Below are positions 2,122 to 61,277 of a stretch of DNA of 64,000 nt, in pieces. The notes under the pieces were generated by a model. It had not been told where the DNA came from, searched no databases, and saw only the letters and a list, made by a program, of their open reading frames with translations. Source of the DNA: Eledone cirrhosa (taxonomy: Eukaryota); NCBI GenBank assembly GCA_964016885.1, contig OZ024747.1:65224001-65288000 (forward strand), read 5' to 3'. Both the position numbers and the translations under genes were made by a program. The number at the start of each line of letters is the position of its first letter. The stretch's first letter is position 1.

Positions 2122-3270
2122 AAGGTTATGCAAGAAATGCTTAGGATTATCCTGAATGCAGTAATGGTTAATTACTACACTAGATAGAGTCGACATACGG
2201 TGAGGGATTACTCAACGAGTTACAAAAGAACAGTTAAAGAAACTTGGTTTCCGATTCTTCTATATTCCAGAGTGTAGATAAAGAATGATTAATAAATCAG
2301 GTAGACATCATAATAAGGTAATTTATTCCAAGTGTTTTCAAATGTTTATTTAGTAGTTACACAGCCTAGTCATGCTACATGCATGTTATTAATTTGAAGA
2401 TACTCAATTTTTAAATGCTGTTCGCACCACCAAATCTTCAGAACGAATGGCTGAATCAAGGTTCTTTTATATTTCTTAAAGGGAGTAATTGGGGGAGATA
2501 AATTAGAAAAAGAAGAGATAAAGAAAGGCAGAGAGAGAGAGAGAGAGAGAGAGAGAGAGAGAGAGAGAGGGAGGGAGAGAGAGTGATATGTAGGGATAGG
2601 AGAAATGGGAGAGAGTGGTTTGGAGAATACAGATAGCTTAATCTAAATGTTGTGATAGGGCTCCAACAAGTGGTTTTATTATACTGCTTACTCTCAAAGT
2701 GACAACTTAGGCATTGTGTTGATATTATCAAGTTTGGAATTATTTATTGCTACAGAGAGCAGGTTAATAGATGTAGAGGAGGGAGATAGACAGAGAGAGA
2801 GAGAGAGGGGACAGAAAAAAGTTAAGAGAAGGGGAAGGAAAGGCAATATACACCGAGTTGATAGTTGTAGTTTGCTGATCGTACTTAAGTATCCATTTAA
2901 TATGATAAGCAAGGTACTGGTTAGTAGTGTGTGGGGGGGGGGGGGGAGATATAGTTAGGAAGTAAGTGTTGAGTGAAATTAGTTAATGAGAAAGTGGTGT
3001 AATAGTCTCTGGTTCAAATTATGTTAAGTTACTTTTATAGTGAGAAATTTAGCCTTCAGTTTGTGGTTGCAGTATAATGATCGTTCGATTCTGTCATTTA
3101 GTAAATTCACTCTGAAGATTTGGTGATGCGAACAGCATTTGAAAATTGAGTATCTGCAAATAAATAACTACCAATTTGCATATAGTATGTCTAGGCTATG
3201 TAGAAACATTTGTAAACACTTGGAATAAATTACCTTTTTATGATGTCTACATGATTTATTAATCATTCTT
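2122..3270. mobile_element. Fold-back Penelope-like remnant; diverged inverted arms ~2280-2458 and ~3085-3270 with degenerate hammerhead motifs
   Basis: Arms are reverse complements; CTGAAGA at 3112 ... GAAACATTTGTA at 3203-3214; same family as 11872-12250; (TA)n on both sides. Confidence 0.6.
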
Positions 3271-3371
3271 TATATATATATATATATATATATATATATA
3301 TGTGTGTGTATATATATATATGACATTGTTGTATGTACAGAAAAATGTTATATATATATATATATATATAT

Positions 3372-3510
3372 ACAGGGTGTCCCAAAAAATGTATACACAC
3401 TTTCCCAACATCATATTTCAATTTCTCTAAAACCAATGTTGGCAATTTATTTATACATATAACAATATATTTACACATTTAACATATTTGTGTACAAACA
3501 ACAAAGTCAT
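3372..3510. mobile_element. Tc1/mariner-like terminal fragment; internal part duplicated at ~1683-1780
   Basis: TA-CAGGGTGTCCCAAAAAATGTATACACACTTT resembles a Tc1-type TIR start; ~95 bp near-identical to 1683-1780. Confidence 0.5.
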
Positions 3511-3529
3511 ATATATATATATATATATA

Positions 3530-3772
3530 TTGTAGAAAACCCGCCAGACAGTCCACGCTGTAATGTGGCCGTGTAGGCAACACGGTAAAAACCTCCCAGC
3601 CCCACACTGTAAATGTGGTTGGTGTTAGGAAGGGCATCCAACTGTAGAAAACCCGCCAGACAGTCCTATGCGAGCAAGACAACCACTCTTGCCTCAAGTG
3701 GGAAAACTCCTGTCCAAACCCATGCAAGCGTGGAACGTGGACGTTAAACAATGATGATGATGATGATGATGA
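3530..3772 (+). mobile_element. RTE 3' UTR / SINE tail fragment
   Basis: GGAAGGGCATCCAACTGTAGAAAA motif, CCATGCAAGCGTGGAA hairpin, (GAT)n tail. Confidence 0.8.
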
Positions 3773-3838
3773 TATATATATAAAGCATTTTATCCGATTC
3801 AAAGCATTTCATCCGAATGAAATGCTTTGAAAGCGCAA

Positions 3839-3927
3839 AACATATCTGAGGAACTTGCGAATGCAGAGTCAGGTTCGATCTGTGACAGATCCTGCCTTGG
3901 GCTGATTGGAGAAACATGTAATATGTT
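3839..3927 (+). ncRNA. Type I hammerhead ribozyme motif, extended stem II
   Basis: Stem I AACATAT/ATATGTT, CTGAGGA 3846-3852, GAAAC 3911-3915, palindromic ACATGT then A (GUA site). Confidence 0.7.
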
Positions 3928-4086
3928 AATACATTGTGTTTTGATGCATCACTGATTCCTCATTATCTATAATATATATGTATGTATGTATGTATGTATG
4001 TAAAAGTAATAACAAAAATAACAAAACAAACGGCACAGTACATGGAAGAAATATATTAGTTTAACACTTGAAGTAGCAGGAAGAGA

Positions 4087-4124
4087 GTCTTAACGTTTCG
4101 GATACTAGTTCTTCATCAGAAGAC
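4087..4124 (-). ncRNA. Minimal hammerhead motif, degenerate stem II
   Basis: Minus strand GTCTT-CTGATGA-AGAACTAGTATCC-GAAACGTT-AAGAC; paralog of 38350-38385. Confidence 0.6.
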
Positions 4125-58479: not shown

Positions 58480-58610
58480 AGGTAGAAGGAGCAACGTGAA
58501 ATAAAGTGTCTTGCTCAAGGACATAACGCATCGCCTGGTCCAGGAATCAAACTCACAACCTTACGATTGCGAATCCATTTCTCTAACCACTCAGCCACAC
58601 GCCTTCACTT
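58480..58610 (-). mobile_element. tRNA-head CORE-type SINE fragment
   Basis: GAAATAAAGTGTCTTGCTCAAGGACATAAC...GGAATCAAACTCAC...CTAACCACTCAGCCAC. Confidence 0.8.
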
Positions 58611-58834
58611 CATATATATATATATATATATATATACACACTACACACATTTATATATAAATACATATATATATGGAATGTACAAGAAAGCAAGGGTCTT
58701 AAAATCCCTCCATTCTCAAACTGTGATAACATGTCCAGCCCATCATTTTAAGATAAGGGGACATAAGAAAAATGATATACCTATATCTCTCTCTTCTCTC
58801 TCTCTTTCTCTCTCTCTCTCACTATATATATATA

Positions 58835-59008
58835 TGAGAACACACCATCAGAACTAAGCAGTGGAAAGTCCCAGAGGAGCCTACAGTTGCCATGTGTGTG
58901 CCAGAGGGTGCAAGTCTTTGGCTGGTTTAAAGAGCCACATTCGTGCCTCACATTTTTTAGCATTATATCAGTCGAGGGCTATGCTCAGACACGCGTTTGC
59001 GGCCATCA
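58835..59008 (+). mobile_element. RTE-like LINE extreme 3' end with C-terminal C2H2 finger
   Basis: YSCHVCARGCKSLAGLKSHIRASH single finger, short UTR ending GGCCATC running into (TA)n. Confidence 0.55.
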
Positions 59009-59954
59009 TATATATATATATATATATATATATATATATATATATATATATATATATATATATATATATATATATATATATATATATATATATATATATA
59101 TATATATATAATATATATATATATATATATATATATATAATATATATATATATATATATATAGAGAGAGAGAGAGAGAGAGTGTGTGTGTGTGTAAGAAG
59201 TATGCATTTGTCTTCTATATACAAATTAAGAGATATATATCAATGTGTAAAAATAAATACATCTTTACCAATATTTTTGAACTTAACAAACACTTTTAGC
59301 TTGTAATCTATCAATCTATCAATTATAACCTTAACATAACATTTTAGCAAGAAATATAACACAAAAATGAAAACTAGGAGCCAAATAAGATGTAACCTTC
59401 GTTTGTACACAACAAATATCAAAGTAAACATTTAATAATGTTTACATTGAATACATGTTGTATTTTGGTTTTGAAACTTTTAAATAGAATTTAATCATAT
59501 CAGACTCACATAAGGTCAAATGTGTGTTTTGTTGAATATATGGCTTACACATACATGAAAGGATCTGGAGGTAGGAAAATCTACATATATATATGTGTGT
59601 GTATGTGTGTGTGAATGTATATAAATATATATATATATATATATATACACACACACAGAGGTAATTTTCGCCTATAAACATTGATTATATAAAAATGTTG
59701 CTCTATTACAGCCCAACACTCTACAAACAAATAAGAAGAGTCTACACCTTAACAACATACAGATGAATACATCATGACATGGTACTTAAGAACAATCACA
59801 TTTAACACAGACTTGACATTTGTTTTTTTATGTATATATTATATTGTATATTTTTACACTTGTAAAGCCATATTTAAATGAGTAGGAATATGTATTACGA
59901 TATACAGCCTACCATTACACCTTATTTATGAAATATTTGCCCAATTAGTATTTA

Positions 59955-60110
59955 ACCATGCTTTGCAGCATAGAGTTATGGCCCTTTGTGTTTTGAGTTC
60001 AAATCCGCCAAGGTCAACTTTTCCTTTCATCCTTACGGGGTCGATAAAATAAAGTACCAGTGATGCACTGGGGTAATCGCTGGCCTTGTGCCAAAAGTAG
60101 AAACCCTGAT
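59955..60110 (+). mobile_element. Deu/Nin-domain SINE
   Basis: GAGTTCAAATCC, CCTTTCATCCTTACGGGGTCGATAAAATAAAGTACCAG. Confidence 0.85.
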
Positions 60111-60541
60111 TATCATTTAACCTTCAGCATGCTGAAAATGTTTCATGAATTGCTTTCCATGACACTGTGTATTAAGGGGAGATTACTCCATTGTCACAAT
60201 TTGTTTCTGCCAGCATGTTGAAAACTGATAATCCTTTCACTGTAACCCTTATCAGTCCAGTTCCCTATTGTCATTCTTATTTCTTATTTTTCATTTTATC
60301 TCCAGTCTATTCCTTGTCTCAACATCCATTACTTGTATTCTAACATACACCAATATACATATATATATCTTCAAAATAGGAATTCTTGTTCATTGTTTCT
60401 GATGAGAATAGTGAGATGGCTCTACTGTGCATACACACGCACACACTTGCATATATATATATATATATATATATATATATATATATATATATATACAAAG
60501 ATCGAAATTAAGAGTATTCCGCAGTTCACTGTAATAATAAT

Positions 60542-60733
60542 TGTTTCTACGTTAGGCACAAGGCCAGCAATTACTCCAGTGTATTACTGGTACTTTATTT
60601 TATCGACCCCCGTAAGGATGAAAGGTAAAGTGAACCTCGGCGGGATTTGAACTCAGACCGTAAAGAGTCGTAACTCTATGCCGTAAAGCATGGCGTCCGA
60701 CCCTCTACCGATACTACCAATCCACCGCCCTTA
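60542..60733 (-). mobile_element. Full-length Deu/Nin-domain SINE with 20-bp TSD
   Basis: TSD CAGTTCACTGTAATAATAAT at 60522-60541 and 60734-60753. Confidence 0.9.
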
Positions 60734-60808
60734 CAGTTCACTGTAATAATAATAATAGTATTAGATCAAAGAAGAATAGAGAATTTTCTTCTGAGCTCAA
60801 ATGCAAAT

Positions 60809-61277
60809 ATATTACACAAAGAGAAGTGTGTTACTTAACGAGCTCCAAATTGTTGAGCTAATAAATTCGAATGGTTGGGCTGCCCTCTCTAGCATTTTCC
60901 CCAATCCACGAGAGCCGTTATTTGATGCAAATAACACGTGATTTCGCCCTACTCTGGGCAGTGTGTATATTAGCTTTCTCTCTATCCATGAGGTTAGATG
61001 TGTCATGAACAGTGTCCACATTTGCTGACTGAGGATCCTGTGACCTGTTATACTGCACATATCGGTGGTGAAACGAAGCGAGATTCGTATCAGCAAACTT
61101 ATAGTTATAAGCTTGGTAATTTAAAACTCTAATTCAGAGATTTGATTCTGACTTAGTTTTTTTCTATTTAATTGCTAAACCTGTAGATATTGTTCTCTAT
61201 ACAGTAACGGTAAAACTCATTTGTAATAATTCTTTACACACCTCTCACTGTGTAACACACTTCTCTTTGTGTAATAT
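60809..61277 (+). mobile_element. ~470-bp element with 26-bp terminal inverted repeats and an internal hammerhead
   Basis: ATATTACACAAAGAGAAGTGTGTTAC / GTAACACACTTCTCTTTGTGTAATAT. Confidence 0.75.
61021..61097 (+). ncRNA. Complete type I hammerhead ribozyme motif
   Basis: Stem I TTTGCTGA/TCAGCAAA (8 bp), CTGAGGA 61029-61035, stem II CC-TGTG/CACA-GG with U.U closure, GAAAC 61070-61074, stem III ACGAA/TTCGT, GUA site at 61087-61089. Confidence 0.8.

Follow-up and report, generated by a model that had tools for sequence, protein, structure and literature searches.

The Penelope-like elements (PLEs) of the Hydra clade are known to leave inverted truncated copies with a one-sided tail of 30-40 bp, to target (TA)n and to carry hammerhead ribozymes (PMC8557442). 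Among the clade's members are Hydra-1_Obim of Octopus bimaculoides and Penelope-13_HM, which has a 5'-truncated copy in inverted orientation, and the clade is marked by RWK, DKT, a CxCX5C linker, and CxxC and CxH around E/N, with no CX2-5CxxC; the origin of inverted and tandem PLE insertions and the role of the hammerhead are stated there as open (PMC8557442). We analysed 64,000 nucleotides of the genome of Eledone cirrhosa (assembly GCA_964016885.1, contig OZ024747.1, positions 65,224,001 to 65,288,000 of the forward strand; hereafter the window, with positions counted from its first letter), in which an earlier note had listed eleven short elements with hammerhead-type cores. Most of these stubs are, very probably, 5'-truncated pseudo-long-terminal-repeat (pseudo-LTR) ends of Hydra- and Neptune-clade PLEs, and the explanation as a whole, in which such stubs are combined with retrozyme-like units and head-to-head priming, is in our view a probable one. 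Hammerheads in the pseudo-LTR, (TA)n as target, truncated partners in inverted orientation and the one-sided tail are already published, also for an octopus Hydra family, and the elements are members of already described kinds, in themselves common remains of transposons from a clade on record.

Other published work also bears on the window. Minimal PLE hammerheads cleave weakly, single motifs come from truncated PLEs, and opposite-strand hammerhead pairs 100-700 bp apart have been reported (PMC4209133). Non-LTR retrozymes have been described in animals (PMC7229834; Li, Clavereau & Pollet 2026, bioRxiv 10.64898/2026.07.22.740005), and of nine retrozyme dimers from Xenopus, eight failed to cleave (bioRxiv 10.64898/2026.07.22.740005). 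In vitro, the Poseidon_Ac protein cleaves both strands and extends them, reverse transcription starting at two internal sites, which account for the tail, the ribozyme being dispensable (PMC11167929). Penelope promoters have been located in the pseudo-LTR (PMC2377424, PMC3846280). For the cephalopod Octopus vulgaris 31 recently active PLE families have been reported, with no mention of ribozymes in the main text (PMC13282606). Neither a rate of pairing between two 3' ends nor a pile-up of truncations at a start site was found in the searchable literature, which does not cover the older subscription work on Penelope or Lunse et al.

The family identity rests on longer copies, taken from genomic loci (L-numbers) that were retrieved by DNA searches of the genome. 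The eleven elements sort into nine families (A to I), in agreement with the several sequence families of the earlier note, and longer copies tie six of them to PLE open reading frames (ORFs), so that the proposed Penelope derivation is upheld by ends colinear with Penelope-like ORFs. In family C an open frame of 830 amino acids lies between two copies of one end (L167 and L169), in a unit of 6,608 bp, and family A is represented by a 3,168-bp partial tandem with an interrupted frame (L166) and by a 736-amino-acid open stretch (L165); partial-tandem pseudo-LTRs thus flank the ORF in L166, L167 and L169. A single ORF with reverse transcriptase (RT) and, at its C-terminus, a GIY-YIG endonuclease (EN) is open in both C and A (YRDD, IVY..YIG). 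The C ORF carries RWR, DKT, YRDD, CxCX5C, CxxC and CxH, and the A ORF the same set, with RWK read in L166 upstream of the stretch tested. In B, E, G and I the RT/EN sequences are fragments. The C-terminus of a Hydra EN lies upstream of family E in two loci (L174, L175); EN lies upstream of family I in L182/L339, with an untranslated region (UTR) common to L188, and upstream of family G in L212, with a UTR common to L173, the tails of G and I being about 70% alike. Family B has a contiguous, frameshifted RT-CX4CxxC-EN in L170, where CCHH in EN was read across frameshifts, with L063 as an additional locus. By these motifs and colinear ORFs, A, its relative A', C, E, G and I are of Hydra type and B is of Neptune type. 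Among 7,999 candidates scored, 118 were homologues, almost all of them proteins without a name, and the nearest Atlas clusters (scores 0.96-0.98) include some with GIY-YIG (26-50% of members) and RVT_1.

Several results weigh against this assignment. Pfam gave zero significant families for 4 ORFs or 24 aligned proteins, the top match among solved structures was weak (a retron RT, E 0.007), and the links of G and of I depend on one ORF-bearing locus apiece. Family D, whose sequence runs upstream for about 430 nt and enters a TG tract there, could be tied to no ORF, the five neighbouring ORFs examined (L211, L335-L338) being of differing families. The ORFs beside G (L217), I (L340) and H (L048-L050) were rejected as separate neighbours.

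In the window all eleven listed stretches were found where they had been placed, give or take a few bases by sequence reading, as follows.

2122 to 3276: family A', a PLE of Hydra type that is 65-77% similar to family A (blastn to the L166 unit, and translation); the long arm, 3103-2142 on the minus strand, begins within the final 26 codons of the GIY-YIG domain, and the short one, inverted and on the plus strand, reaches 3276, with predicted core 3112-3214 (plus), an 84-nt stem II region and the 5' arm of stem I lost at the junction.
3782 to 3976, plus: family I stub, Hydra type (EN upstream in L182/L339); core 3846-3920 with 7-bp stem I, 58-nt stem II region and a 32-nt inverted piece; its 5' end falls on the family pile-up site described below.
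4000 to 4140, minus: relative of family B, Neptune type; core 4119-4092 with minimal palindromic stem III and mutated stem II, without inverted partner.
9151 to 9689: family C, Hydra type, 99% like the intact 6.6-kb element; short arm 9349-9151 (minus), long arm 9349-9689 (plus), core 9356-9490 (plus) with a 116-nt stem II hairpin.
11871 to 12250: family A, Hydra type, 98-99% like the 3,168-bp full-length unit; long arm 12176-11871 (minus), short arm 12176-12250 (plus), core 12174-12071 with the 5' arm of stem I cut by the junction.
18553 to 18721: family D, without linked ORF; short arm 18612-18553 (minus), which holds the core without the 5' arm of stem I, and long arm 18610-18721 (plus).
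19720 to 20114: family E, with a Hydra-type EN found upstream in L174 and L175; long arm 19942-19720 (minus) without core, short arm 19944-20114 (plus) with an A9U core at 19955-20055.
33388 to 34142: family F, retrozyme-like unit of about 440 nt; one full unit plus a redundancy of about 38 nt at 33660-34142 (plus), core 33826-33856, and an inverted partial unit at 33651-33389.
37164 to 38212: family G (Hydra-type EN upstream in L212), with 345-nt inverted arms; core 37845-38082 (plus), 219-nt stem II region and stem I unformed, a doubtful ribozyme.
38263 to 38485, minus: stub of family B, which in L170 is contiguous with a Neptune-type ORF; core 38381-38354, without inverted partner; its 5' end is at the family pile-up site.
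60734 to 61279: family H, retrozyme-like unit of about 550 nt; forward arm 60844-61279, core 61029-61089 with 8-bp stem I and hairpin stem III, and an inverted tail 60834-60734 that resumes at 60541-60496 past another insert.

Apart from these, the window holds the detached H-family tail piece at 60496-60541, an extra F-family fragment without core at 58125-58320, and, at 54580-55369 on the minus strand, the decayed remnant of a Hydra-type RT/EN, interrupted by stops and frameshifts. The statement that no RT or GIY-YIG ORF is visible in any element fails for the first of them, since the long arm of A' begins within the last 26 endonuclease codons.

The common layout claimed for the elements was compared feature by feature. 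A core of the CUGAN(G)A/GAAAC/GUH type is present in each of the eleven stretches, with the departure that the family E copy at 19720 reads CUGAUGU, the A9U change being found in 15 of 15 copies of that family. Complementary stem I arms accompany the core in six window copies (3846, 9356, 33826, 61029, 38381 and 4119) and, with 4 bp, at 19955; they are missing from the elements at 2122, 11872 and 18559, where the inversion junction took away the 5' arm, and from family G (37168), in which stem I is unformed beside the core in 13 of 14 copies. An inverted arm occurs in 9 of the 11 elements, of which the 3800 element has merely a 32-nt piece, and is absent from both B-family copies (4001 and 38265). 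In 5 of the 11, the sense strand has an AATAAA after the core. As to (TA)n ends, a TA-rich 14-mer lies past the 3' end in most copies of C (41/42), A (28/34), E (34/38) and D (88/111), as well as in G (21/29) and I (40/67), and the tendency is weaker for B (19/41).

At the family level, the type I core and stems I to III could be assigned for A, B, C, D, F, H and I, and for E as the A9U variant, while stem I could not be formed for G. The cognate stem I arms of the nine families pair over a mean of 5.4 bp (0 for G), against a mean of 0.7 bp for 72 swapped arm combinations. Paired changes also separate subfamilies: in B, stem II reads GGAC/GUCC or GGGC/GCCC (22-23 and 5 of 33); in D, stem I carries the double change GAUUC/GAAUC to GCUUC/GAAGC; and F shows a double compensatory change in stem I. 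With the core kept unpaired, the hammerhead-compatible folds of C, I and A lie 0.2-2.5 kcal/mol from the optimum, and stem I stayed open when copies of G and E were folded likewise. Across the Hydra-type families the stem II regions span 58-219 nt. As read from the bases, several window copies hold broken ribozymes.

In order to compare the frequency of the motif with chance, a strict descriptor requiring all of stems I to III, and a second one permitting any 15.2-16.2 pair, were run on 80 evenly spaced 10-kb stretches (800 kb), an unbiased genome sample. The strict descriptor gave 49 matches, spread over 25 of the 80 stretches, against 0-1 in 8 shuffles, and the second gave 65 against 0-1 in 6 shuffles. 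The window itself holds 4 strict matches, with a shuffled mean of 0.01 and a maximum of 1 (100 dinucleotide shuffles in 1-kb blocks); a relaxed descriptor found six window cores with paired stem I, and the first, strictest descriptor gave zero matches in the window. The shuffle comparison suggested in the earlier note thus came out in favour of real motifs. The note put the density of elements at about one per 6 kb; strict matches number one per 16 kb in the window, the same rate as in the genome sample. Extrapolation to 3.0 Gb gives, roughly, 180,000-240,000 intact-looking hammerhead motifs, an estimate on which two arrays weigh (13 of the 49 strict matches).

A search of Rfam found zero hammerhead families among 129 matches at E<=1 in the window, probably because the stem II regions are as long as 58-116 nt. 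This blank, together with the fact that inverted repeats are favoured in AT-rich DNA, is what would speak for chance motifs and palindromes made by the assembly. Such an artefact is refuted by the numbers of descriptor matches over shuffles, by asymmetric arm ends and unique flanks at dozens of loci, and by the thousands-fold depth of the family-A stretch in short-read contigs of one other sample, and we give it practically no weight. In DNA contigs of one sample, the depth over 11600-12470 was high, with zero empty-site joints spanning the element.

Additional hammerheads were also observed. A very abundant family absent from the list of the earlier note lies at 5925-5985 (plus), with pieces at 15476-15688; it has a G15.2-C16.2 stem III, 6-bp stem II and 4-bp stem I, the core of the window copy is mutated, and 28 blast matches were found in the 800-kb sample. 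Hammerheads with a stem II of 91-97 nt were seen in L295, L298 and L296, two related ones differing by a compensatory change of the stem III palindrome from AATT to GGCC. An intact 832-amino-acid Hydra-type ORF of a further family (L180:5979-8474, minus) has two flanking ends with a CCGAAGA core (U4C). Three copies of another repeat, at 14339-15445 of the window, carry just the CUGAUGA half-core, and similar copies stand near C-terminal GIY-YIG ORFs in L048, L162 and L329, by proximity only.

The earlier note had taken the elements for retrozyme-like, non-autonomous units, and the same idea can be put as a rival explanation, namely that the stubs are small units, similar to miniature inverted-repeat transposable elements or to retrozymes, which are transcribed and spread as such. 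The stubs indeed lack ORFs, and there are thousands of candidates per family in a first-look search (A 1,779; B 1,738; C 1,467; D 1,288; E 3,405; F 3,734; G 3,379; H 1,101; I 2,321), from which 40 were scored per family; the top copies of A and C are 99-100% identical. For families F and H, read from their repeat structure as tandem ORF-less units, this explanation holds. Family F forms head-to-tail arrays in L179, L220 and L221 (11, 16 and 5 core motifs, spaced by 430-445 nt or multiples), the array in L220 giving 23 matches within 9.9 kb, and family H is a circularly permuted unit of about 550 nt (L042, L057, L059), with zero arrays of full units among the loci examined; zero colinear ORFs were found for either among these loci. 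For D the explanation is possible. It is contradicted for A, C, E, G, I and B. Against it stand ends that run into intact ORFs elsewhere, near-identical copies with differing junctions, and 5' ends that scatter from +20 to past -450; these six families are better described as 5'-truncated ends of protein-coding PLEs, and as an account of the stubs in general the small-unit model is improbable. Further retrozyme-like arrays were observed in the unbiased sample, with units of 311, 482 and 467 nt (L290, L294 and L255).

The geometry of insertion was determined from the 3' ends, counted from the predicted cleavage site, with longer second retrievals of loci and window duplicates both excluded. Eight of the nine families have two discrete 3' ends, a short (S) and a long (L) one: A +60/+200, C +64/+199, E +61/+228, G and I about +55/+132, D +18/+93, H +190/+289 and F +215/+278, the short end of F being less certain since it lies within a microsatellite-like tract. 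The distance between S and L, which makes the tail, is 75-167 nt outside F and 63-167 nt overall, and the S sites are TATA- or ATAT-like spots. Because no family terminates at the predicted cleavage site, the template would not be a linear RNA ending at GUH. Among 99 head-to-head pairs, 90 could be classified, and outside F nearly all of them join one S arm to one L arm (72/76); with F the script counted 81 of 90, or 80 of 90 once the window F pair is read as L+L. For many of the loci, selection was by a query that included the core, the partner arm being unselected except in E. The fold-back junction varies from copy to copy, even among near-identical copies, so that it would arise at each insertion rather than be inherited.

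Family B differs from the other eight, with a single 3' end (+90 in 38 of 41 copies) and no inverted pair in any of 41 copies. This bears on a model in which the palindromic stem III dimerises two RNAs that are then co-copied into an inverted pair. In A, C, E, G, I and F the arms overlap and the stem III loops are palindromes or nearly so, as the model would have it, but B has the minimal palindrome and forms no pairs, and H forms pairs with a stem III that is a self-contained hairpin. We judge the dimerisation model rejected, with little probability left to it.

The 5' ends, placed relative to the ribozyme core, pile up in families D, I, C and B and, loosely, in A. In the tail-only sets of D (35 loci), the interval from -7 to +5 contains the ends of 44 of 62 arms, and of the arms that reach -5, 23 of 33 halt at -7 to -5. 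Of 10 scorable loci (from 15) in family I, 7 stop at -36 to -32; in B 9/19 stop at -107 to -96, and in A 5/19 at -14 to -1. The core-anchored loci of C stop at -9 to -2 in 9 of 19 cases, with zero between -10 and -273. The sequence upstream of family I gave 61 candidates against 2,321 for the core (the query copies differ). The sites of D and E match the initiator (Inr) and are preceded by a TATA box, at 33 nt in D and at 30 nt in E, and those of C, A and I are Inr-like, I having a conserved CCAAT about 66 nt upstream; the background per base is 0.002 for TATA and 0.018 for Inr. In full-length A and C the leader from Inr to ATG measures 361 and 495 nt and spans the ribozyme, S and L, and the distance from L to ATG is 49 nt (A) and 154 nt (C). 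A splice acceptor was considered as the cause of the pile-ups and rejected, AG preceding the site in D only.

Taken together, the S+L pairs and the pile-ups suggest run-off cDNAs from two start sites in a 5' leader. In the mechanism we propose, the transcript would begin at the Inr-like site just upstream of the ribozyme, placing ribozyme, S and L in the leader. The GIY-YIG domain would cut both strands of (TA)n, L being primed by one cut strand and S, which is TATA-like and able to pair with the target, by the other; both cDNAs would then extend toward the 5' end of the RNA, run off or drop off earlier, and be joined head to head. Stubs that run off at the start site would result where priming takes place in the leader, and long and tandem copies where it takes place in the repeat lying downstream on a read-through or circular RNA. 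For run-off at a start site beside the predicted ribozyme we see the balance as even. The stubs as a fossil record of priming, with two fixed start sites per insertion, one for each target strand, and with many cDNAs running off at the transcription start, is a tentative reading to which we lean slightly less than halfway. If true, truncation pile-ups would map PLE promoters from DNA alone, retrozymes without ORFs would prove to be moved by the PLE machinery, and the genome would contain some 180,000-240,000 intact-looking hammerheads, including the long-stem-II and A9U variants that Rfam misses.

Several of the 5'-end data weigh against this mechanism. In the tail-only set of C (20 of 40 matches) only 2/20 arms stop at -7 and 16/20 run at least 114 nt further; in E, only 3 of 25 unbiased arms end at the site, the loci that halt at Inr having been chosen by a query containing the junction. 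The B site matches neither Inr nor TATA, no clear pile-up site was found for F, G and H, and the sites of C and D fall on the 5' edge of stem I.

This last point is shared by the main rival of the mechanism, which competes with it alone and not with the identity of the elements: the inverted arm would be made by snap-back self-priming of the cDNA or on an antisense template, and the pile-up by a block of RT or of 5'-3' decay by the ribozyme or a protein. Such an origin of the arm has been proposed for rotifer Penelope (PMC3846280), and it fits the symmetric pairs of C and D and the 31 of 81 S+L pairs whose arms halt 15 nt or less apart, just as the block fits pile-ups on the edge of stem I. 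The long arm is the longer one in 19/81 pairs. In the remaining 31/81, against snap-back, the short-tail arm reaches further 5' (the E subset being query-biased), 18 of them with the long arm halting near S, as in twin priming, and 13 others; the pile-ups of I and B, 35 and 104 nt away from the core, speak against a block at the ribozyme. We therefore regard snap-back with a roadblock as rather unlikely, and retain priming from two start sites as the working mechanism.

The remainder of the window includes minisatellites with a 48-bp unit at 23206-25909 (56 copies), 31919-32459 (11 copies) and 40670-41343 (14 copies), and one of 53 bp in 42 copies at 44135-46327. A 352-codon open stretch at 17085-18160 is an RT-like fragment of a long interspersed nuclear element (L149), which we take to be of RTE type.

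Compared with the known systems, the Hydra-type families agree with the published Hydra clade in the C-terminal GIY-YIG, the RWK/DKT/CxCX5C/CxxC/CxH motifs, the hammerhead near the 3' end, (TA)n, the inverted partner and the one-ended tail (PMC8557442). They differ in unit length (3.2 and 6.6 kb, against generally <3 kb, a tendency rather than a strict criterion), in stem II regions of 58-219 nt against hammerheads of 80-100 nt including flanks, in tails of 75-167 nt against 30-40 bp, in the A9U core of family E and in the thousands of very young copies. Family B resembles the Neptune PLEs (PMC4209133) in its CX4CxxC linker, its minimal palindromic stem III and the extra base after A9, and is unlike them in that its copies show a single 3' end, form no inverted pairs and have 5' ends piled up about 104 nt upstream of the core.

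With Poseidon_Ac (PMC11167929) the proposed mechanism shares two internal RT start sites that set the tail, the cutting and extension of both target strands, and an AT-rich target. The Poseidon_Ac sites are adjacent, lie inside the ORF, are not strand-specific and are not homologous to the target, which counts against an extension of that system to the present one; the sites here are 63-167 nt apart and upstream of ATG, one per arm, with S on a TA-like spot. Families F and H are like non-LTR retrozymes in their head-to-tail units, which lack ORFs, are low in GC and each carry a single type I hammerhead. Their dispersed copies are unlike retrozymes in bearing the insertion marks of PLEs, that is an inverted truncated partner, two 3' ends and a TA target. 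These marks give structural rather than phylogenetic support to mobilisation by PLE enzymes, which we consider likely for both. Young, intact Hydra-type copies with near-strict S+L pairing and predicted start sites offer a useful mechanistic lead on the PLE side of this comparison, and on the other side the insertion marks of PLEs on units without ORFs bear on the mobility of animal retrozymes.

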